Positions 3,984-49,163 of a stretch of DNA of 64,000 nucleotides are shown in pieces. Position 1 is the first letter of the stretch. Each line of letters begins with the position of its first letter. Under the pieces are notes generated by a model. The model saw only the letters and a program-made list of their open reading frames with translations. It was not told the origin of the DNA and searched no databases. The DNA is taken from assembly GCA_001189095.1 (NCBI GenBank), contig LFCK01000001.1, positions 253,159 to 317,158 of the forward strand, in the 5' to 3' direction. The translations under genes and the position numbers were made by a program. This stretch comes from Parcubacteria bacterium C7867-001. GTDB taxonomy: Bacteria > Patescibacteriota > Minisyncoccia > Phycocordibacterales > Phycocordibacteraceae.

Positions 3984-4298
3984 TTATTTTCTGCCGGTAA
4001 AGAATTCACGAACAGCAATGAACGGTATCCTGCTTGCAAAACGTATGACACGCATTGCCTGCTTGCGTCCGCGGGCGAACAAGCCGATTTCCGCACGCAC
4101 TTCTTCCGCGAGACTGCGTAGCGCTTGCGCTGCTTTAATCGCGTGATACGCGACGGCAACAGAGGCGATCGTTACGACAATCACGCCTGTTGCCGTGATC
4201 GCGAAAAAAGTTTGCAAGAGATGCGAATCCGTCACAGAGGTAACTCTACCGAAGGGGTAGTGAAGGCTGCATGAGCGTCTTTCAAAGAAGATTGACAA
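3984..4298 (-). CDS. DUF948-like membrane protein (TM helix + coiled coil)
   Basis: TTG start. Single TM followed by KAAQALRSLAEEVRAEIG. Lies 13 bp upstream of the YtxH-like gene, resembling the Bacillus ytxG-ytxH arrangement. Confidence 0.4.
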   Translation of the reverse strand: MSIFFERRSCSLHYPFGRVTSVTDSHLLQTFFAITATGVIVVTIASVAVAYHAIKAAQALRSLAEEVRAEIGLFARGRKQAMRVIRFASRIPFIAVREFFTGRK

Positions 4299-4380
4299 AT
4301 ACTGAATTTATAGTTTATAATTAAACTTAGACGTTCTGCGGTTCGGATGTTCCGGACCGCAGAGCGCAGGAGGCACTCAA

Positions 4381-5217
4381 ATGCATCTTGAAGATCAACG
4401 TATTTGCTCGCATGCGAGCAAAAGTGCGCTCGGGCTCATCGAGATCCGCTACGAAGCGGGGTTATCGAAAAACCGGTTGCCGTATCACAGTCGTTGGCAT
4501 ACCGAAAGCGTGATTCGTCGCGCTGCAATGATCGCTGATGCAATTTGCGTCGACGATCGTTCAAAAATGCTCGCTCATGTCGCGGCAGCTTTCCACGACG
4601 TCGTTCACGAGCGTGGCGCACCTCAAGGCGAGAATGAATGGCAGTCGGTCGTCGACTTCCAGTTCTGGGTCCCTTCGCTTGCGCTCATTGAAGCCAAGCT
4701 TTCGGATGCCGAGCAAGCGCTCGTCAAAGAAGCGATTCTCGCGACCAGTGTGTCGTGGAGTGCTGAGCACCAGACGATCATTCAGCCAAATCTCATGCCG
4801 GACTCGGATCCGGTAGTGCGAGCGGTTGCGATGGCCGATATCGGGAGCCCCGGCATGGAGCCGGACGATTTCGAGAAAGGCAGCGATCTTCTGTTCGCAG
4901 AACGCGAGACAGATATTATGCTGGCGCTCGAACTTTCCGATGGTCAGGACTGGGTTCCGAAGCCGCTGCAGAATGAGTATATTGCCCGCTACGTGAAGTG
5001 GAAGGAAACGCAGCTTTTGTTCGCGAAGAGCCGCAAGGCACTTTTCGAAACGGAGCTCGGCAACCTTGCTGACGGCCGCAATCGAATGCGAGCGCTATTC
5101 TCCCACTTCGACGAATCGATCGATATTGCGGACAATCACGTCTTGCGTGCTCGGACGATTCGTTTCGACGAGCTCGCGGCGCTCCTTATGCCGAACAAGT
5201 TCTCGGCTGAGGCGTAA
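4381..5217 (+). CDS. HD-domain phosphohydrolase
   Basis: AGGAGG RBS 8 nt upstream; H...HD motif (YHSRWHTESV ... AAAFHDVVHE). Confidence 0.65.
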   Translation: MHLEDQRICSHASKSALGLIEIRYEAGLSKNRLPYHSRWHTESVIRRAAMIADAICVDDRSKMLAHVAAAFHDVVHERGAPQGENEWQSVVDFQFWVPSLALIEAKLSDAEQALVKEAILATSVSWSAEHQTIIQPNLMPDSDPVVRAVAMADIGSPGMEPDDFEKGSDLLFAERETDIMLALELSDGQDWVPKPLQNEYIARYVKWKETQLLFAKSRKALFETELGNLADGRNRMRALFSHFDESIDIADNHVLRARTIRFDELAALLMPNKFSAEA

Positions 5218-5233
5218 TCGTCCCGCAAGTAAA

Positions 5234-5268
5234 TGCAGAAACCCCGCGCCAAAGGCGCGGGGTTTTTC
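5234..5268. terminator. bidirectional intrinsic terminator
   Basis: gaaaccccgcgccaaaggcgcggggtttttcttt. Confidence 0.65.
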
Positions 5269-5269
5269 T

Positions 5270-6163
5270 TTATCCATACCGGTAGGCAGTCACTTTCTTG
5301 AAGCCATACCGCAGGACATGGACCATGATGTCGTAGAGAGCGTGCACGATGATCGCGACGAAGATGCCGTAGTTCACGGTCGCAAACATGAGGACGCATC
5401 CTGCGTACCATGAGTTCACGGCCCCCAAGAGGCCTTGGTATTTGTGGCCATCTCGGAACCAGGCGTTCGCCGCAAACATTCCTATGATGAGCATGGCAGG
5501 CTCTTTTCCGTAGAACACGGGATGCATGAGCTTGAGTGTCATGAAGTCCGCGATTGGATACAGGATGTTCTTGTAGATGAAGAACACCGGATCGTGGTTC
5601 AGCTTGAACACCGCCCAAACGACGAGCGCTGCGAGCCCTGTGAGGAGCAGGCGCCCGAGGAATGGTGCATCCATGTTTCGCAGGAAGAGCGAGATGAAGA
5701 AAATTACCCCGAGGCCAGCCGCAATAACGGCGACGACCCAGCCTGCAACACCCCAGAACCAATTGAAGACGACGAGCAGCAGCATGGCGTACATGACGCC
5801 GATGCCGCGGAACCACGCCTCTTCAAGGACACCTGCGCTCACCGAGCGAAACATTCCCTCGACGAGCAGTCCTTCATCTTGCGACGGACGACTGTCTGAA
5901 AGTGTATCGGGCTTGAAGATATAGATTGCGCAGGACAAGCCCGCCCCACAGGCCAACAACGGCCAGAACCGGAGCACGTCGTGCGTCCAGTCCTTCGACA
6001 GATACAGGTAGGGGTAGATGAAGAATGTCGGCCAGAAGTGATGGAGCACAAGCGCCCCAAGACCGCCGAACACGCAGAGAAGCAGCAAGAGAATTTTGAC
6101 TGCCCAAACATTCACCAGCCGCTCGGTTTCTTGATCTCCTTCGAGATCGTCTTTGACGCTCAT
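5270..6163 (-). CDS. CPBP-family intramembrane metalloprotease (CAAX protease/Abi-like)
   Basis: Multi-TM protein carrying the three CPBP motifs: EEAWFR (EExxxR), FRDGH (FxxxH) and HALYD (HxxxD). Confidence 0.75.
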   Translation of the reverse strand: MSVKDDLEGDQETERLVNVWAVKILLLLLCVFGGLGALVLHHFWPTFFIYPYLYLSKDWTHDVLRFWPLLACGAGLSCAIYIFKPDTLSDSRPSQDEGLLVEGMFRSVSAGVLEEAWFRGIGVMYAMLLLVVFNWFWGVAGWVVAVIAAGLGVIFFISLFLRNMDAPFLGRLLLTGLAALVVWAVFKLNHDPVFFIYKNILYPIADFMTLKLMHPVFYGKEPAMLIIGMFAANAWFRDGHKYQGLLGAVNSWYAGCVLMFATVNYGIFVAIIVHALYDIMVHVLRYGFKKVTAYRYG

Positions 6164-16379: not shown

Positions 16380-17477
16380 ATGTTGAAAATAGGAATCGTC
16401 GGATTGCCGAACGTGGGGAAGTCCACGCTTTTTAATGCACTTACGAAAGCTGCGGTACCTGCGGAAAATTACCCGTTCTGCACCATCGACCCTTCGGTCG
16501 GTGTTGTTGGTGTTCCTGATGAGCGCCTCACAAAGCTTGCTGAACTTTCGAAGTCAGAGAAGACGATCCCTGCCGCTATTGAGTTCGTCGATATCGCAGG
16601 GCTCGTGAAAGGCGCGTCCGAAGGCGAAGGTCTTGGTAACCAGTTTCTTTCTCATATTCGTGAGGTGGATGCCATTCTCGAAATGGTTCGTTTCTTCGAC
16701 GACCCAGATGTTACGCACGTGCATGGCGAAGTCGATCCAATAAAGGATATCGAGGTCATAAATCTCGAGCTCGCGCTTGCCGACAAAGAGTCAGTTGATA
16801 AACGACGCGAGCGTCTTGTGCGCGATATCAAGTCGGGCAATAAAGACGCGGCTGCAGAAGATGCCGTTCTTGCTAAGGTGGCGCAGACCCTCAACAATGG
16901 CTTGCTCGCACGACAAGCGGAACTCACTCCTGAGGAAGCGAAGCGCATTCAGTCGATGAATCTCCTCACGATGAAGCCAATCCTATACGCCTTCAACGGG
17001 AAGTCAGGTGGCCATAATCTCAATGAACTCAATGACGGGCGCGCGAAGGCGGCGTATGAACTCATGGATGCACTTAAGGCAGAATACGTACACGTGGATG
17101 CTCGCACTGAACATGAACTCAATGACGTCGCTGAAGGTGATAAGAATTCTTTCCGTCAGGAGCTCGGCGTACAGGTAGACGGCCTCGTTGACCTTATTCG
17201 CGGCGCGTATCGCACGCTTGGTCTCATTACCTTCTTTACGACGGGTCCGAAGGAAAGTCGTGCATGGACGGTACCGAACGGCGCGCTCGCGCCGGATGCG
17301 GGTGCAGCGATACACAACGATTTCAAGGATAAATTCATCCGCGCAGAAGTCATTGCATGGGACAAACTACTCGGAGACGGCTCATGGAGTGCGGCGCGCG
17401 ATAAGGGCGATATTCGTACCGAAGGAAAGACGTATCCGGTCGTCGATGGTGACGTGATGGTTTTCCTCCACAGCTAA
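16380..17477 (+). CDS. ychF: ribosome-binding ATPase YchF (Obg-family GTPase)
   Basis: G1 motif GIVGLPNVGKSTLFNALT, 365 aa, C-terminal TGS domain. Confidence 0.9.
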   Translation: MLKIGIVGLPNVGKSTLFNALTKAAVPAENYPFCTIDPSVGVVGVPDERLTKLAELSKSEKTIPAAIEFVDIAGLVKGASEGEGLGNQFLSHIREVDAILEMVRFFDDPDVTHVHGEVDPIKDIEVINLELALADKESVDKRRERLVRDIKSGNKDAAAEDAVLAKVAQTLNNGLLARQAELTPEEAKRIQSMNLLTMKPILYAFNGKSGGHNLNELNDGRAKAAYELMDALKAEYVHVDARTEHELNDVAEGDKNSFRQELGVQVDGLVDLIRGAYRTLGLITFFTTGPKESRAWTVPNGALAPDAGAAIHNDFKDKFIRAEVIAWDKLLGDGSWSAARDKGDIRTEGKTYPVVDGDVMVFLHS

Positions 17478-30624: not shown

Positions 30625-32595
30625 TTACCAAACCGTCTCGCGATCTTTTGGTTCGCGCCAAAGCTTGTCGCCTTTTTTCACTCCGTACGCCTCATAAAAA
30701 GGTCCGAAGTTTGAGACTGGTCCGTTGATGCGGAATTGTCCGGGCGAATGAGGATCCGTAAGCGTAATAGTCTTCTCGTATTCCGGACGAATGTTCTCGC
30801 GTTCGAATTGAGCAAAGCCAAGGAAGAAGCGTTGCTCGGGAGTGAATCCCTTGATTGTTCTTCGTCCCGTTCGTTTAAGCGCGTGCTGAAGCGCTTCGTA
30901 TCCCATGAGAAGACCCACGGAGTCTGCTATGTTCTCACCGAGCGTCAGCTTACCGTTTACTTTGACACCGTCAGCGACTACGTATTCGTTGAATTGGCGA
31001 ACAAGGGCTTTGCCTTTCGCTTCAAAGCGTTTCTTGTCGAGCGCGGTCCACCAGTTATTCAGATTTCCGTTCTTGTCGTACTTCGCGCCTTCATCATCGA
31101 AGCCGTGAGAGATTTCGTGCGCAATGACGGCACCCATCGAGCCGTAGTTGAAGGCATCGTCTCCGTCGGGATCGAAGAACGGCGGCTGCAGAATCGCTGC
31201 CGGGAAGGCGATTTCGTTCATGTTCGGAGCGTTGTAGGCGTTCACGGTTTGCGGATACATGAACCACTCATCCCTATCAATCGGGCCGTGGAGCTTTTTC
31301 ATCTGTCGCTTGTGCTCGTACTCTGCGGTGCGTACCGCATTACCGACGAAGTCATCGGCTCGTATTTCAAGACCGCGATAGCTCTTCCATTTGTCGGGGT
31401 AGCCAATTTTCTTATTCATCGCTGCAAGCTTCTGAAGCGCCTTCTTCTTGGTCGACGGACTCATCCATGGAAGTTCCTTGATGCGTTCGCGGTATGCGAA
31501 GAAAAGATCATCAACGAGCTCATTCATGCACTTCTTCGCGTGCGCGGTGAAGTATTTCTTTACATAAATCTGCCCGATGAGTTCACCGAGATTTCCATTT
31601 ACCACCGCAAGGGTGCGGCGCCAGAGCGGCTTCATATGCTTCGTACCCGTAAGCACGGTGCCGTAGAAAGCGAAATTCTGCTTGGCTACGTTTGGCGAGA
31701 GTACTCCCGCGAAATCGTCGAGTACGCACCACTCAAGATAGATCTTCCAATCCGCAAGCGGGGTGCTCATAAGGAGTTTTGAGAGCGCAGCAAGGTAGTC
31801 CGGCTGCATTACGATAAAGTTGTTTGCTGTACCCGCGCCGATGCGCGCAAAGTAACGTTTCCAATCAATAGCCGGTGAGGATTTTTGTAGGGCCGCAAGC
31901 GAGCGTTTGTTATAGGTCTTTTCGACCTCACGGCGATCCACCTTATTCATTTGTTTCTTTGCGAGCGCTGTTTCGATTTGCATAACAACTGCCGAGCGAC
32001 GTTTTGCCTCAGCGGGCTTGTAGCCAAGAAGTGCGAGCATTGCCGCAACATGCGGCACATATGCATTGCGTACGCGCTTTGATTCAGCGTCGTCCTTGAG
32101 GTAGTAGTCGCGGTCTGGCATACCGAGTCCATCTTGGAAGACGTGAAGAATGTATTTGGTTGTATTTTTTGCATCCTGATCGATGCCCGCATTAAAGAGC
32201 GGCCCGACGCCGATTCGATGGAGGTCAGCGACCAAATCCTGAAGCTCGGTCAGTGTTTCCAGCTTTTCGATGCGCTCGCGCCATGGCGCGAGCGGTTTCG
32301 CACCGAGCTTTGTGCGTGTCTTGAGATCCATGCCCGAACGGTAGAAATCTCGAATCATCTGTTCCGGACTGCCATGAGCCGCGCGTTTGAGGCTAAGCAG
32401 ATCCGCGAGAATCATCTTTAGTTTCTTTTCCGTGTCGTAGCGAAGCATCACAAACGAGCCCCAGCGCGGCTCGGTCTTGGGGATTTTGGTTCGCGCGAGC
32501 CAGCCACCGTTCGCGTAGCGATAGAAATCGTCCTGCGGCCGCACACGTATATCCATGTCGCGCACTGAAATAGGGAGAGAAACGGTCTTCTGCAT
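30625..32595 (-). CDS. pepO: M13-family zinc metallopeptidase (PepO/neprilysin-like), no signal peptide
   Basis: HEISH (HExxH), ENIAD and NAYY motifs; 656 aa. Confidence 0.9.
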   Translation of the reverse strand: MQKTVSLPISVRDMDIRVRPQDDFYRYANGGWLARTKIPKTEPRWGSFVMLRYDTEKKLKMILADLLSLKRAAHGSPEQMIRDFYRSGMDLKTRTKLGAKPLAPWRERIEKLETLTELQDLVADLHRIGVGPLFNAGIDQDAKNTTKYILHVFQDGLGMPDRDYYLKDDAESKRVRNAYVPHVAAMLALLGYKPAEAKRRSAVVMQIETALAKKQMNKVDRREVEKTYNKRSLAALQKSSPAIDWKRYFARIGAGTANNFIVMQPDYLAALSKLLMSTPLADWKIYLEWCVLDDFAGVLSPNVAKQNFAFYGTVLTGTKHMKPLWRRTLAVVNGNLGELIGQIYVKKYFTAHAKKCMNELVDDLFFAYRERIKELPWMSPSTKKKALQKLAAMNKKIGYPDKWKSYRGLEIRADDFVGNAVRTAEYEHKRQMKKLHGPIDRDEWFMYPQTVNAYNAPNMNEIAFPAAILQPPFFDPDGDDAFNYGSMGAVIAHEISHGFDDEGAKYDKNGNLNNWWTALDKKRFEAKGKALVRQFNEYVVADGVKVNGKLTLGENIADSVGLLMGYEALQHALKRTGRRTIKGFTPEQRFFLGFAQFERENIRPEYEKTITLTDPHSPGQFRINGPVSNFGPFYEAYGVKKGDKLWREPKDRETVW

Positions 32596-32672
32596 GCGCA
32601 GCAGTATACCTCAGACGCGTTGACTCTTCATGAACTACACCCTATGGTGAGAAAAGAAGAGGAGACAAAAGT

Positions 32673-32789
32673 ATGGATACGCTTGATTCCGCCGTTGGAA
32701 CCATTCTCGCCCTCGGGCTTCTGGCCATCGGCCTCGGCCTCACAGCGCCTGTCTCGTGGCGCACGATCGTCAAATCGATCCTCCATTAA
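32673..32789 (+). CDS. small hydrophobic peptide (38 aa)
   Basis: RBS GAGGAG; promoter-like TTGACT-N17-TATGGT at 32620-32648; terminator at 32800-32836. Confidence 0.35.
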   Translation: MDTLDSAVGTILALGLLAIGLGLTAPVSWRTIVKSILH

Positions 32790-32839
32790 ATAAAGAAAAC
32801 CGTCCCGAAGCGCTGCGCGCTTCGGGACTTTTGTATTAA

Positions 32840-32868
32840 TTGACAAATTGTATTATATTAAATATAAT
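32840..32868 (+). promoter_or_regulatory. consensus sigma70 promoter TTGACA-N17-TATAAT
   Basis: Read directly: ttgacaAATTGTATTATATTAAAtataat. Confidence 0.6.
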
Positions 32869-32906
32869 ATATCTCGGCCATCAACCGACGGAAGAGGAGA
32901 CTTACT

Positions 32907-33158
32907 ATGTCGGCAGTGGGAGATCAATTCGAACAAGAATTGAAAAAAGAGTTTGACTGGGCGGAGCTCGGTCAAACCATTCTGGGGGTCTTCGGACTTG
33001 TGCTCGCGCTCGGCGGCTTCACTGTCTGCGTTTACTCGCAGCATCATGTCGTCGTGAACACGCAAGGCATCAATCAGGCGTTTGTCGACGGCATCACCGT
33101 GCTCGGCGTCGGCGTCATCATTGCCCAGAATGCTTTCGGAGCGATCCGGAAGAAATAA
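32907..33158 (+). CDS. small two-TM membrane protein (83 aa)
   Basis: RBS GAAGAGGAG; terminator cagccgccgcgcttacgcgcgcggcggcttttggtttg follows. Confidence 0.5.
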   Translation: MSAVGDQFEQELKKEFDWAELGQTILGVFGLVLALGGFTVCVYSQHHVVVNTQGINQAFVDGITVLGVGVIIAQNAFGAIRKK

Positions 33159-33216
33159 GCCTTGTTCTTGGCTCAAAATCAGCCGCCGCGCTTACGCGCG
33201 GCGGCTTTTGGTTTGT

Positions 33217-33245
33217 TTGACATAATTACTAATTTAGTATATAAT
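33217..33245 (+). promoter_or_regulatory. consensus sigma70 promoter TTGACA-N17-TATAAT
   Basis: ttgacaTAATTACTAATTTAGTAtataat; near-duplicate of the promoter at 32840. Confidence 0.6.
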
Positions 33246-33274
33246 ATAGTTTGGCAAACTGGGAGTATTGAAAG

Positions 33275-33439
33275 ATGGCGACGTTCATTCCGTTTGTAAC
33301 CCTGTTCGCGTCGGCGAGCTGTTTCGGACTTGCGACATTTAATGTCCTTTCCGGAAACCCTCTTCCGCTGCTCGCTGCAGCTGAAGTTTCCGTTGGTGTA
33401 CTCGCCTTCGGCAGCTTCCTGACCGCTCTGAAAAGCTAA
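33275..33439 (+). CDS. small hydrophobic peptide (54 aa)
   Basis: RBS GGGAG; hairpin terminator gcgcccggaccttcgtccgggcgctttgtat follows. Confidence 0.4.
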   Translation: MATFIPFVTLFASASCFGLATFNVLSGNPLPLLAAAEVSVGVLAFGSFLTALKS

Positions 33440-33505
33440 GCCCGCCCTCAAAGCCCCTTGCGCCCGGACCTTCGTCCGGGCGCTTTGTATGATATCTTCA
33501 TTCTC

Positions 33506-35449
33506 ATGACCGTTTCAGAAGTACGTAAGCGCTATCTCGCATTCATGCAATCACGCGGACACGTGATTATTCCGTCGGCTCCTATCGTGCCGGGTAACGA
33601 CCCGACGACTCTTTTTACTTCGTCCGGCATGCAACCCTTGGTTCCGTATCTCCTCGGCAAGGATCATCCGGAAGGAAAGCGTATCGCGAATTCGCAGATG
33701 AGCTTCCGCGCGGGAGACATCGAAGAAGTTGGTGACAATCGCCACACCACTTTCTTCGAAATGCTCGGCAACTGGTCGCTCGGCGACTACTTTAAGAAAG
33801 AACAGCTTCCGTGGTTCTTCGAATTCCTCACCAGCAAAGAGGAGGGGCTCGGACTCGATCCAAACAAGCTCTACGTTACGGTTTTTGCGGGAGACCCAGA
33901 GAGCGGCATGTCGGAAGACATGGAAGCAGTTGAAATCTGGAAGGAACTTTTTAAATCGAAGGGTGTGGACGCAGAATTTTCAAACATCGGTAGCGAAGTG
34001 CAGGGCTACGAAAAAGGAATGGGCGCGAATGATCGCATTTTTGCCTACGACGCAAAGAAAAACTGGTGGAGCCGTGCGGGTGTACCGAGCAAAATGCCAG
34101 CAGGCGAGCCGGGCGGTCCTGACTCAGAAGTTTTCTACGACTTCGGCCTTCCACATGACCCGAAATGGGGAGCAAACTGCCACCCGAACTGTGATTGCGG
34201 ACGCTTTGTCGAGATAGGGAACTCGGTGTTCATGCAGTTCGTGAAGAATGAGGACGGTTCGTTCTCGAATCTTCCAAAGCAGAACGTGGACTTTGGTGGA
34301 GGTCTTGAACGCCTTACGTTTGCAACCCTCGGGACACCGGATGCATTCCTTATAGATGTATTCGATGCTGCTCGCGGCGTTCTTGAGGCCCGCTCTGGGA
34401 AAACGTACGGCGAAGACGACTCCACTACCAAGGCGATGCGTATCATTCTTGACCACATGCGCGCAGCCTCTTTCATGCTTGCTGAGGGCGTTTTGCCGTC
34501 GAACACTGAAGCAGGGTATGTTCTACGCCGCCTTATTCGCCGAGCCATTGTTCAAGCAGACCGTCTTGGTATAAAAGACGCGATACTCGCCGAAGTTGCC
34601 GACGGATATGCAGCCGCGTATGTTGAGCATTATCCGCACGTTCAATCTTCTGCGGCAAAAATTCACGCGGAATTAGCGAAGGAAGAAGAGCAATTTAGAA
34701 AAACACTTGCCAATGGAATGCGCGAGTTTGAAAAATTCTTTACTGCGACAATTAACGGAGCTTTGATGGCGAAGGATTTGGATTCAGATGCTGTTTTCAA
34801 GCTTGTTACCACTGACGGTTTTCCTTTTGAACTAGTCAAAGAAGTCGCTGCTGAGCGCGGCCTTGGTGTAAATGAAATAGAATTTGAAAAGCGAATGAAA
34901 GTTCATCAAGAGACTTCACGCGCTGGCGGAGCGCAGCGCTTTGCAGGCGGACTCGCCGATCATGCAGAACAGACCGTCCGCTACCACACCACGCATCACA
35001 TTCTCCTCAAAGCACTTCAGATGGTACTTGGAGACGAAGTGAAGCAGCGCGGCTCAAACATCACCAGCGAGCGTTTGCGCATCGACTTCTCGAGTCCCGC
35101 TAAAATGACGGACGAACAGAAAGCGGATGTGGAGAAAATCGTGAACGATATTATTTATCAGGATCTTCCGGTCACACGCACCGTCATGCCGCGCACTGAA
35201 GCAGAAAAACTTGGCGCGCAGATGGAATTCGGCGTGAAATATCCCGATACGGTTTCTGTGTATTCAGTTGGACCTATCGACGCGACTGAAGCGGACCCAA
35301 AGATTCCGCAGGCATTCTCACTCGAGTTCTGTGGCGGTCCGCACGTCTCCAACACCAAAGAAATTCACGAAGGCGGAAAGAGATTCCGTATTCAAAAAGA
35401 AGAAGCCGTCGCTTCCGGCATCCGCCGCATCAAGGGAATCCTTGACTAA
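33506..35449 (+). CDS. alaS: alanyl-tRNA synthetase, short form lacking the C-terminal C-Ala/DHHA1 domain
   Basis: Class II AlaRS N-terminal catalytic domain (SAPIVPGNDPTTLFTSSGMQP, FFEMLGNWSLGDYFK) and the editing-domain HxxxH/CGGPHV motifs; 647 aa. Confidence 0.9.
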   Translation: MTVSEVRKRYLAFMQSRGHVIIPSAPIVPGNDPTTLFTSSGMQPLVPYLLGKDHPEGKRIANSQMSFRAGDIEEVGDNRHTTFFEMLGNWSLGDYFKKEQLPWFFEFLTSKEEGLGLDPNKLYVTVFAGDPESGMSEDMEAVEIWKELFKSKGVDAEFSNIGSEVQGYEKGMGANDRIFAYDAKKNWWSRAGVPSKMPAGEPGGPDSEVFYDFGLPHDPKWGANCHPNCDCGRFVEIGNSVFMQFVKNEDGSFSNLPKQNVDFGGGLERLTFATLGTPDAFLIDVFDAARGVLEARSGKTYGEDDSTTKAMRIILDHMRAASFMLAEGVLPSNTEAGYVLRRLIRRAIVQADRLGIKDAILAEVADGYAAAYVEHYPHVQSSAAKIHAELAKEEEQFRKTLANGMREFEKFFTATINGALMAKDLDSDAVFKLVTTDGFPFELVKEVAAERGLGVNEIEFEKRMKVHQETSRAGGAQRFAGGLADHAEQTVRYHTTHHILLKALQMVLGDEVKQRGSNITSERLRIDFSSPAKMTDEQKADVEKIVNDIIYQDLPVTRTVMPRTEAEKLGAQMEFGVKYPDTVSVYSVGPIDATEADPKIPQAFSLEFCGGPHVSNTKEIHEGGKRFRIQKEEAVASGIRRIKGILD

Positions 35450-45158: not shown

Positions 45159-45446
45159 ATGGCTACTGCTATCGAATACGGATTGATTGGTGCCCTCGTC
45201 ATGGTCGTCGGCATCGGCGCATGGTCGGTCACAAAGGACGAGGTGGGGTTCAGCGCAAAAGCTGAAGCCGCCGGCGTCCCGCAGGAACCGAAAGGCCCGC
45301 CGACCTTCGACGCCAACGGGGAGAAAATCTACTACTCCCTCCCGCTCGCGCAGAAAGAATGCGAGCTCGGCGTCTGGCAGCGTCAACGGCACTTCGGCAG
45401 CGCGCCGACCTACCGGTGCGTGACCGAAATCGAGGCGCCCGAGTAG
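45159..45446 (+). CDS. Flp/Fap-family (type IVb, Tad-type) pilin-like protein
   Basis: Strong RBS ACAGGAGG; N-terminus MATAIEYGLIGALVMVVGIG carries the Flp EYGLI motif. Confidence 0.55.
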   Translation: MATAIEYGLIGALVMVVGIGAWSVTKDEVGFSAKAEAAGVPQEPKGPPTFDANGEKIYYSLPLAQKECELGVWQRQRHFGSAPTYRCVTEIEAPE

Positions 45447-45504: not shown

Positions 45505-45711
45505 TTATTTCTTCGAGACGTCTATTGCGTACGGCCCCTTATTGCTTTCAACGATGGAGAACATGAGCTTGTCTCCTTTCTTCAAGTTCGCAAATGCGAT
45601 TTTAACCAGATCGTCGGAATGGAAGAAAAGCGGTTCCTTCACGCCGACTATTTTGATGAATCCAGAGCTGCGCTCAGTAAGTTCTACGATGGTTCCAGTG
45701 AGCGTTTTCAT
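45505..45711 (-). CDS. cold-shock protein (CspA family)
   Basis: GTIVELTERSSGFIKIVGVKEPLFFHSDDL...GPYAIDV: cold-shock domain with RNP motifs. Confidence 0.9.
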   Translation of the reverse strand: MKTLTGTIVELTERSSGFIKIVGVKEPLFFHSDDLVKIAFANLKKGDKLMFSIVESNKGPYAIDVSKK

Positions 45712-45767
45712 AGGGAGAGAGTGCGAGCAGGGAACAAAGAAGCGCCCGTTGGGGCGCTTCTTCTGAC

Positions 45768-45968
45768 TTAGATCTTCGAGACCTTTACGGCCTTCGGACC
45801 TTTGTCACCGTTTTCGACTTCGAACTCGAGCTTGTCGCCCTGTCGGAGGTCATCAAACGATACATTCACCAACTCGTTGGAATGGAAGAAGAGATCCTTC
45901 TCCTGTCCCTCGATTTTGATGAAGCCGAAGCCCTTGTCGGTAAGACCGGCTATGATTCCTTGCTGCAT
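45768..45968 (-). CDS. cold-shock protein (CspA family)
   Basis: GIIAGLTDKGFGFIKIEGQEKDLFFHSNEL...GPKAVKV; a terminator hairpin lies between the two csp genes (45740-45766). Confidence 0.9.
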   Translation of the reverse strand: MQQGIIAGLTDKGFGFIKIEGQEKDLFFHSNELVNVSFDDLRQGDKLEFEVENGDKGPKAVKVSKI

Positions 45969-46105: not shown

Positions 46106-46134
46106 TTGACAAAATTATACACATGGTGTATAAT
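46106..46134 (+). promoter_or_regulatory. consensus sigma70 promoter TTGACA-N17-TATAAT
   Basis: ttgacaAAATTATACACATGGTGtataat. Confidence 0.55.
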
Positions 46135-46179
46135 GGTATTAACCTGCTCGCGTAGCAGTCTGGAAAGAAAGGTCTTTCG

Positions 46180-46284
46180 ATGACAAGCTTTATTGGCAAA
46201 GTCGTTCTGCCGATCGTTGGTTTGTTGAGCCTCGCGGTTCTGTACCACCTGATCAGCGCCGCCGCGTCGATTCAGCACCCTTAG
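46180..46284 (+). CDS. small hydrophobic peptide (34 aa)
   Basis: Downstream of the consensus promoter; weak RBS AAAGG; followed by a GC-rich terminator at 46320-46365. Confidence 0.3.
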   Translation: MTSFIGKVVLPIVGLLSLAVLYHLISAAASIQHP

Positions 46285-46492
46285 CGCAAGCTATGCGGAT
46301 TCACTGAACGCCGGTCAAGCGGGCCCGTTTGCTCCTCGCAAGGAGTGACGGGCCCGTTTTTTATTCTTCATACGCCGTTCACGCCTTTTTTGAGAACCTT
46401 CATGAGGACAAGCAGAAAATATTGACATGCATAGATTCGTATGCATAATGCCTTTACGGCACAACTAGGCCGTGTTGTAAGGAGACCACACA

Positions 46493-46792
46493 ATGAGATT
46501 GGTAAAGAGAGTTGCTAGCACGCTCGTGCTGACAGCCATCATTTCCATCGCGTTCTGGGGGGTCGATTTCTCAGGCATGAGTGCCCGCGCTAGCGTGCAG
46601 GCACTCCATACCACCGTGCAAGTAGTCGCTTCACGCTCCCGCACATGGGAGACCGTAGAAGCGGCGAAAGACCCGTGCTCAGCCGCTGCGGTTATCGCGG
46701 TCGTGGAGTTGGGCGAAGACGGCCAGAGCACCCGCTACGGATGCTCTGACAAGATCGCCCCTCTTCCTGCGACCGAGGAACTGGAACGCTAG
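46493..46792 (+). CDS. small secreted protein (99 aa, signal peptide, 2 Cys)
   Basis: Promoter TTGACA-N16-CATAAT at 46420-46448 with an embedded palindrome atgcata...tatgcat; RBS AAGGAGA; terminator at 46810-46846. Confidence 0.5.
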   Translation: MRLVKRVASTLVLTAIISIAFWGVDFSGMSARASVQALHTTVQVVASRSRTWETVEAAKDPCSAAAVIAVVELGEDGQSTRYGCSDKIAPLPATEELER

Positions 46793-46932
46793 CACTACAC
46801 GGACAAGCCAAAGGCCCGCGCTCAAGGAGTGCGGGCCTTTTTCCTATATTTTGGGGACTTGAATCAGGAAACGGGGAAGCGTACTATGCAGGTACTTTGT
46901 GCGCATTTACTAATCCGTAACGAATATTTCCT

Positions 46933-48957: not shown

Positions 48958-49071
48958 ATGTCCTTCATTTTGGAACCCAAGAACGTGACCTTTCTCGCGA
49001 ACCATCCGTTCCTCGTGGCCTTCATCGGCTTCGTCGGCGGCACGGGGCTCGTGTTTAAACTCTGGGGATAA
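48958..49071 (+). CDS. small hydrophobic peptide (37 aa)
   Basis: Strong RBS AACAGGAGG 5 nt upstream; terminator gggcggcgcacttcgtgcgccgcctttt follows. Confidence 0.35.
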   Translation: MSFILEPKNVTFLANHPFLVAFIGFVGGTGLVFKLWG

Positions 49072-49163
49072 TGGGGAATTATCCGGCAGAGCGAAATGGG
49101 CGGCGCACTTCGTGCGCCGCCTTTTGCATACCAAAATGAAGAAGCGTATAGTGATTTTTATCT

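Follow-up and report, generated by a model that had tools for sequence, protein, structure and literature searches.

Three tandem promoter–ORF–terminator cassettes for predicted small membrane proteins between pepO and alaS of Parcubacteria bacterium C7867-001

Introduction

The genome of Parcubacteria bacterium C7867-001, a bacterium of the candidate phyla radiation (CPR), contains a spacer between a minus-strand M13 peptidase gene (called pepO here) and alaS, the gene for alanyl-tRNA synthetase (AlaRS), in which three short transcription units follow one another, each consisting of a promoter, a small open reading frame (ORF) and a terminator. The spacer occupies positions 32596–33505 of the 64-kb stretch of DNA that was analysed (hereafter the window). 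What do these three cassettes encode, and how did they come to lie there? An earlier note on this DNA compared them to type I toxin-like or bacteriocin-like membrane peptides, or to abundant small RNAs (sRNAs) with incidental ORFs. On balance, we consider it probable that they are three lineage-specific genes for small membrane proteins, each expressed strongly and independently of the others, with terminators insulating them from one another and from alaS.

The C7867-001 genome comes from the Hanford aquifer and has a size of 812 kb and a GC content of 53% (PMC4508563, Table 1 for the GC content); in it, transmembrane (TM) proteins account for 33.4% of the genes (PMC4508563, Table 3). The GC fraction computed for the window is ~0.53, in line with the published value, and the 58% given in the earlier note is too high. 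Independent assemblies yielded the same locus, 100% identical in every recovered copy.

Results

Cassette layout and promoters

Within 32620–33490, three plus-strand units follow one plan: promoter (P1–P3), Shine-Dalgarno (SD) sequence, short ORF (p38, p83 and p54) and intrinsic GC-hairpin terminator (T1–T3). Their elements, in order, are:

32620–32648, plus strand, promoter P1, TTGACT-17-TATGGT, 9/12 consensus matches; the -10 hexamer keeps A at position 2 and T at position 6
32659–32664, plus strand, SD of p38, GAGGAG, 8 nt before the ATG, inside the 11-nt string GAAGAGGAGAC
32673–32789, plus strand, p38 (ABA06_01640), 38 amino acids (aa), one predicted TM helix, acidic N-terminus and basic C-terminus
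32802–32828, plus strand, terminator T1, 12-bp stem and T-rich tail
32840–32868, plus strand, promoter P2, TTGACA-17-TATAAT, 12/12 matches
32894–32899, plus strand, SD of p83, GAGGAG, 7 nt before the ATG
32907–33158, plus strand, p83 (ABA06_01645), 83 aa, predicted charged amphipathic N-terminal helix and two TM helices, C-terminal IRKK
33181–33206, plus strand, terminator T2, 11-bp stem with 10 GC pairs and T-rich tail
33217–33245, plus strand, promoter P3, TTGACA-17-TATAAT, 12/12 matches
33261–33265, plus strand, SD of p54, GGGAG, 9 nt before the ATG
33275–33439, plus strand, p54 (ABA06_01650), 54 aa, predicted two-helix TM hairpin
33460–33483, plus strand, terminator T3, 10-bp stem and T-rich tail, separating the cassettes from alaS

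Every element that the earlier note had described was found in its place, including the two perfect promoters, and its description of independent mini transcription units also holds: the next -35 hexamer begins 10–11 nt past each terminator stem. The geometry is uniform, with the -10 hexamer 24–38 nt before the ATG, 5′ untranslated regions (UTRs) of ~17–31 nt in all three units, and the stop codon 12–22 nt before the terminator stem. T1 is an inverted repeat with an A-tract upstream and a T-tract downstream, and therefore looks bidirectional.

Sequences with at most one mismatch to TTGACA-N17-TATAAT occur three times in the window, compared to 0.14 times in shuffled sequences, and none of 100 shuffles reached three; the density of consensus promoters in the window is not a matter of chance. 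Perfect promoters, which the earlier note had called very rare, are not unique to this locus: the window contains four (P2, P3 and those at 4292 and 46106), besides a promoter with 11/12 matches at 46422. The resemblance it saw between the P2 and P3 spacers is one of A/T-richness only, with 7/17 positions identical by hand count. P2 and P3 do have the 10-nt core ATATAATATA around the -10 hexamer in common, and the P2 spacer and -10 hexamer form a 9+1+9 inverted repeat, TATTATATT-A-AATATAATA (32850–32868, shuffle p = 0.046).

Judged by sequence, all three promoters are probably strong, and the perfect consensus of P2 and P3, together with their A/T-rich spacers and discriminators, suggests strong constitutive transcription. 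Since each gene has its own sigma-70-type promoter, canonical SD and terminator, each probably gives rise to a discrete, efficiently translated mRNA, with predicted lengths of ~180, 340 and 240 nt. T3 would shield the conserved promoter of alaS itself from read-through.

Coding potential and predicted products

All three ORFs have already been annotated, as hypothetical proteins. To score them, a codon log-odds measure was trained on 20 long genes of the window and compared on 54-codon windows, for which in-frame gene windows gave about 0.40 ± 0.16 and off-frame windows –0.62 ± 0.39. The scores of p38 and p83 (0.41 each) are gene-like and host-like, and the annotated frame scores best of six for each of the three ORFs. 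GC at codon positions 1/2/3 is 0.65/0.49/0.70 in p38 and 0.65/0.33/0.67 in p83; GC3 thus exceeds GC2 in these two, but not in p54, where the profile is flat. Two minus-strand ORFs of 107 aa (32853–33176) and 90 aa (33179–33451) were rejected as shadow ORFs, having scores of –0.04 and –0.08 and no start signals. Codon usage, an SD 7–8 nt before the ATG and the predicted TM helices lend good support to p38 and p83 as coding sequences, while the case for p54 is weaker, coding being plausible but not secure.

TM helices are predicted in p38, p83 and p54, in agreement with the earlier description of the products as small TM peptides. That description also called them Gly/Ala-rich; they are rather Leu/Val/Gly/Ala-rich TM sequences, in which Gly and Ala together make up only 21–24%. 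Net charges are 0, –2 and 0, respectively. p38 contains one hydrophobic segment. Single-sequence AlphaFold models gave helices at residues 3–15, 18–46 and 52–81 for p83 (predicted local distance difference test, pLDDT, 65) and a helical hairpin at 4–26 and 31–53 for p54 (pLDDT 75). The N-terminal tryptic peptide of p83 is SAVGDQFEQELK. The three single-gene units would accordingly be expected to produce integral membrane proteins: p38 with one TM helix, p83 with an amphipathic helix and a two-TM hairpin, and p54 with a two-TM hairpin. From these signals we infer strong promoter firing, translation and membrane insertion of all three.

Orphan status

p83 and p54 are identical to the database entries ABA06_01645 and ABA06_01650, and at 90% identity p38, p83 and p54 are each the sole member of their cluster. 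Among ~15 billion proteins, no homologue was found of either p83 or p54. In a word-indexed search of 5.8 billion clusters, p83, p54 and a 99-aa ORF from elsewhere in the window (see below) matched only themselves, and an exhaustive phmmer search with p83 against 1.8 billion cluster representatives returned, besides p83, only P0002, a spurious ORF of 1443 aa that is an out-of-frame tandem-repeat artefact. p38 falls below the 40-aa query minimum and was tested by tblastn on related loci and by cluster look-up alone. By tblastn, none of the three peptides occurs in any of ~160 alaS loci from related CPR genomes and metagenomes, in which the closest AlaRS relatives have 75% (genome scan) and 69% (metagenome scan) identity.

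Searches of Pfam-A, NCBIfam, PADLOC and PHROGs gave nothing past cut-off for the cassette peptides (best E = 0.011–0.6), and no DNA similarity of the block to phage or plasmid records was detected. A viral match of p83, to an 841-aa phage tape-measure-like ORF in L164 and L165 (38% identity over 68 aa), was rejected because it was seeded by a chance exact 8-mer, QGINQAFV, and its 36 bits are not significant for the collection; p54 had no match in the viral contigs. Comparison by eye with CydX, ATP synthase subunit c, SecG and SecE revealed no resemblance, and Pfam was silent for these too. CydX has been reported missing in the C7867-001 genome (PMC4508563).

With translation signals, TM helices, no homologue and a syntenic site that is empty in relatives (see below), p38, p83 and p54 class as lineage-specific orphan small membrane-protein genes. 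Orphan small membrane proteins are a known kind, to which these three, already annotated as hypothetical, add further cases.

The block as a gain in this lineage

The features bordering the cassettes are:

30625–32595, minus strand, pepO (M13 peptidase), ATG at 32595
32603–32608, minus strand, -10 hexamer of pepO, TATACT, separated from the ATG by 7 nt; marks the left boundary of the ancestral spacer
33490–33498, plus strand, extended -10 of alaS, TGATATCTT, separated from the ATG by 7 nt; marks the right boundary of the ancestral spacer
33506, plus strand, ATG of alaS, the true start (MTVSEVRKRY...), in agreement with homologues

In four related loci, L004, L010, L086 and L090 (AlaRS 75%, 60%, 63% and 60% identical to that of C7867-001, respectively), pepO and alaS are divergent neighbours 46–83 nt apart. 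The gap is 234 nt in L008 and 910 nt in C7867-001. The difference between 910 nt here and 46–83 nt in the relatives indicates that ~830 bp with all three cassettes were added in this lineage. In C7867-001, L004 and L010 alike, a UDG gene lies upstream of pepO.

Both edges of the original spacer recur in relatives: TATACT or TACACT stands 8–9 nt before the pepO ATG in L004, L010 and L086, and TGnTATC(T/G)T 7–9 nt before the alaS ATG in L004, L005, L006, L010 and L086. The alaS and pepO mRNAs therefore look leaderless, with a -10 element that ends ~6–9 nt before the ATG, no SD, and conservation of this arrangement in relatives. The genes at 16380 and 49164 also look leaderless. Given the SD-led cassettes on one side and leaderless alaS and pepO on the other, both modes would coexist in this CPR genome. 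On this reconstruction, the block came to separate two promoters that had at first stood almost back to back.

The gain need not be recent, as the nearest sampled relative is still distant; the codon usage of p38 and p83, which resembles that of the host, speaks against a foreign origin in the very recent past. As to mobile elements, the block shows no integrase, no tRNA gene and no flanking repeats except the 7-nt direct repeat TCTTCAT, which flanks the inserted block (32625–32631 and 33494–33500) with a chance probability of ~0.1. The starts of pepO and alaS also contain an inverted exact 9-mer, GACCGTTTC, in 32579–32596 and 33499–33516 (chance ~0.01), and both proteins begin M..TVS, where the pepO products of relatives begin M..KGWGF. 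The 9-mer and TCTTCAT may be left over from the rearrangement by which the block arose, or may be due to chance.

Among relatives without the pepO–alaS adjacency or with a longer spacer, two have small lineage-specific features of their own upstream of alaS. In L005, this is an 84-aa ORF with two TM helices (5711–5965), unrelated to p83; in L008, a TTGACA motif and a hairpin are present in the 234-nt spacer (756–989). Small genes may thus come and go repeatedly upstream of alaS.

Within ±5 kb of the cassettes, the neighbouring genes encode an ATP-cone protein, a PDDEXK-family protein, MGMT, UDG, the M13 peptidase, AlaRS and three proteins without a significant family match.

Relationship of the cassettes to one another

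Pairwise alignments of the cassette peptides and the other small ORFs of the window gave a best shuffle z of 2.4–2.5, which is not significant after 15 comparisons, and p38, p83 and p54 are not demonstrable as duplicates. At the DNA level, the 11-nt ribosome-binding-site string GAAGAGGAGAC is identical before p38 and p83, and in-frame stretches that are 68–76% identical encode VLALGGF, VLGVGVI and VLAFGSF. A (V/I)LA(L/F)G-like stretch is shared at the peptide level. The ribosome-binding-site string, the in-frame stretches and the ATATAATATA core could be explained either by a tandem duplication long ago or by convergence towards optimal signals and TM codons.

Similar cassettes elsewhere in the window

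Perfect promoters occur at ~1 per 16 kb in the window, compared to 1 per 72 kb in 1.5 Mb of related CPR loci, and in that 1.5 Mb no small TM ORF was found behind a perfect promoter. GC-hairpin terminators follow most genes of the window, with ~28 on the plus strand. Other small TM ORFs with both SD and terminator start at 46180, 46493 and 48958, and belong to the following units:

46106–46352, cassette with a 12/12 promoter and a 34-aa ORF
46422–46840, cassette with an 11/12 promoter and a 99-aa signal-anchored ORF, an orphan
48958–49071, plus strand, 37-aa TM ORF (ABA06_01765) with an AGGAGG SD and a terminator at 49099–49121, between dnaK and dnaJ; single-member cluster

The first two lie in tandem between two csp cold-shock genes (45505–45968, minus strand) and dnaK (46933). 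All three share the promoter–small TM ORF–terminator architecture of the p38, p83 and p54 units, but their 34-, 99- and 37-aa ORFs have no sequence similarity to p38, p83 or p54, and the 99-aa protein looks like a signal-anchored secreted domain, unlike the pure TM peptides of the spacer. Four of the five consensus or near-consensus promoters of the window drive small TM ORFs, and the three products among these that are long enough to search (p83, p54 and the 99-aa protein) are all orphans. Many conserved genes of the window use extended -10 promoters, and some are leaderless. The cassette architecture is the normal gene style of this genome taken to an extreme.

Downstream of the perfect promoter at 4292 (TTGACA-N18-TATAAT) come a hairpin in the 5′ UTR and an ORF of 278 aa (region 4292–5265), for which no Pfam or PDB sequence match was found. 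Inverted repeats that include the -10 hexamer are present in three of six strong promoters: in P2, as described above, at 46113–46134 (ATTATACAC-ATG-GTGTATAAT, shuffle p = 0.0004) and at 46427–46446 (ATGCATA-GATTCG-TATGCAT, shuffle p = 0.016). All three differ in sequence, which makes a common repressor unlikely; they place TATAAT on the minus strand as well, so that the promoters are possibly bidirectional. The promoter at 46106 faces a csp gene ~140 nt away. A 95-aa ORF at 45159–45446 (plus strand) starts with MATAIEYGLIGALVMVV, the mature N-terminus motif of Flp/Fap pilins; its Pfam match (PF04964, E = 1e-4) is below cut-off, and no leader peptide precedes the usual G/ATAIEY cleavage site.

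Discussion

Small membrane proteins or functional RNAs

The products of the three cassettes would, we infer, be abundant, non-lethal membrane components, for example modulators of the envelope or of membrane complexes in an episymbiont rich in membrane proteins, and we favour this over a toxic function. Several observations weigh against reading the cassettes as membrane-protein genes. No homologues exist in the collections searched, and the recovered copies are 100% identical, without polymorphism that might reveal purifying selection. The codon score of p54, 0.007, is under the 5th percentile of real in-frame windows, and an ORF of 38–54 codons after an ATG is not very improbable at 53% GC (~0.1 estimated for 54 codons). 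The transcripts fold more stably than shuffled sequences (z = –3.0, –5.0 and –3.7), which would also fit structured RNAs, and any specific function proposed for the peptides is a guess.

These points bear directly on the possibility that the cassettes produce abundant sRNAs or dual-function RNAs and that the ORFs, mainly that of cassette 3, are incidental. Transcripts of ~180–340 nt running from a strong promoter to a strong terminator, with stable folds and no protein homologues, would suit such RNAs, as would the near-zero codon score and flat GC1/2/3 profile of p54. However, the terminator hairpins supply much of the folding z-scores, and no Rfam 15 family reached its gathering score in the window; at E values up to 10 all matches stayed below the gathering score, and those of at least 22 bits sit on terminator hairpins. 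Moreover, each SD stands 7–9 nt before the ATG of the longest ORF, which ends 12–22 nt before the terminator, clean TM helices are encoded by all three ORFs, and the codon usage of p38 and p83 is gene-like. The suggestion of the earlier note is therefore possible for cassette 3 and unlikely for cassettes 1 and 2, and as an account of the locus we regard it as rather unlikely.

Toxin-like arrays

In a type I toxin-like array, the peptides would be membrane-damaging and would be curbed by antisense or trans-acting RNAs, or by mRNA folding. Membrane type I toxins are usually shorter than 60 aa and hydrophobic, with a single predicted TM α-helix, and a search for small hydrophobic ORFs in tandem succeeded in the case of ZorO (PMC8309996). 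p38 and p54 are hydrophobic and shorter than 60 aa, p38 has one TM helix and a charged C-terminus, and the ORFs stand in tandem as in the ZorO search (PMC8309996). However, p83 is over the size limit at 83 aa and has two TM helices, p54 likewise has two, and the three peptides are not demonstrable duplicates and have no match in NCBIfam, Pfam or PADLOC.

An antitoxin RNA gene was looked for on the opposite strand. Minus-strand -10 hexamers inside P2 (32857–32852, TATAAT) and P3 (33241–33236, TATACT) could start antisense RNAs across T1 and T2, but they have neither a -35 element nor a TG extension, and their transcripts would meet the reverse side of T1 or T2. No minus-strand promoter with at least 9/12 matches is present in the cassettes (32620–33460), although a weakly promoted antisense RNA is beyond the reach of sequence, and no complement to the cassettes was found elsewhere in the window.

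With regard to control by mRNA folding, the predicted fold of transcript 3 pairs its SD with the 3′ UTR (probability 0.92–0.95) in what would be a 5′–3′ clamp; the pairing depends on a guessed transcription start and is not relied upon. The probability that the SD is unpaired is 0.32, 0.52 and 0.21 in transcripts 1–3, again with a guessed start. SD accessibility is not below that of codon-shuffled controls in any of the three transcripts, but the control for transcript 3 kept the 3′ UTR pairing partner and is uninformative there. Type I toxin mRNAs have long structured leaders, whereas the 5′ UTRs here are short and their SD is optimally placed, and three toxins on perfect consensus promoters without a visible antitoxin would be hard to tolerate. 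The toxin-like reading of the earlier note is thus not sustained, and we consider it unlikely.

A related, equally unlikely idea is that of a young or newly captured array of highly expressed membrane-active peptides at the envelope or host interface, or of self-limiting toxins with unconventional control, in which perfect promoters would mark young orphan genes and housekeeping genes would be leaderless with -10-only promoters. If true, the locus would be a compact example of new small genes gaining full expression signals in a streamlined genome.

Secreted peptides and control of alaS

Secreted bacteriocin-like or host-directed peptides, also raised by the earlier note, are a very unlikely explanation. 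Small hydrophobic peptides with GxxxG-like motifs in their TM segments and very strong promoters might be expected of an organism thought to live on other cells (PMC4508563). However, inspection by eye found no LSxxELxxIxGG-like double-glycine leader or Sec signal leader (p83 has ...WAELGQ), the net charges given above are not those of cationic peptides, no family matches were obtained, and no ABC exporter, C39 peptidase, modification gene or immunity gene is among the neighbours within ±5 kb.

That cassette 3 acts as a leader-peptide attenuator or another read-through control of alaS, as its promoter, a short ORF with an AAA run (LLAAAEV), a terminator and an alaS ATG 22 nt further on might suggest, along with a weak Rfam Leu_leader match on T2 (26 bits against a gathering score of 50), is extremely improbable, because alaS has its own extended -10 (TGATATCTT) after T3, which is conserved in five relatives without cassettes and implies a leaderless mRNA; read-through RNA would leave the alaS AUG internal and without an SD, a 54-aa two-TM ORF is unlike known leader peptides, the minimum-free-energy and centroid structures contain no alternative anti-terminator fold, and the Ala content of p54 (9/54) is ordinary for a TM peptide.

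Significance

Taken alone, p38, p83 and p54 are hypothetical small membrane proteins, of which CPR genomes commonly have several. Should the peptides be produced, their genes would rank with the most strongly promoted ones of this uncultured CPR bacterium, whose genome is reduced, and nothing related to them is known. Most deserving of attention are the way in which the block was inserted and the association of consensus promoters with orphan genes. The before-and-after comparison, 46–83 bp against 910 bp with three complete genes, should be useful for studying the origins of orphan small genes, promoters and terminators; in addition, the locus is a source of compact natural promoters and terminators, and lets SD-led and leaderless expression be compared within a single genome.

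Comparison with known systems

Chromosomal small membrane proteins of fewer than 100 aa, such as AcrZ, KdpF, CydX and MgrB in Escherichia coli, have one or two TM helices. Some of their genes are equipped with a promoter, SD and terminator of their own; annotation often overlooks such proteins or lists them as hypothetical, and they evolve fast.

With the type I toxins Hok, Fst, TisB, ZorO and IbsC, the cassette products share small size, hydrophobicity, a TM α-helical character, possible tandem arrangement and lack of conservation across taxa (PMC8309996). They differ from these toxins in that no gene for an antitoxin RNA could be detected, the leaders are short and look open instead of being long and sequestering the ribosome-binding site, p83 is too long and has two TM helices, and the cassette promoters are maximal, not restrained.

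p38, p83 and p54 resemble chromosomal small membrane proteins such as AcrZ, KdpF, CydX and MgrB in being short ORFs with one or two predicted TM helices. They have no sequence relation to any described family, and they adjoin a peptidase and a tRNA synthetase, not a membrane complex to serve. Unlike the AcrZ-type genes, they stand in tandem while being unrelated to one another, each behind a consensus or near-consensus promoter of its own.

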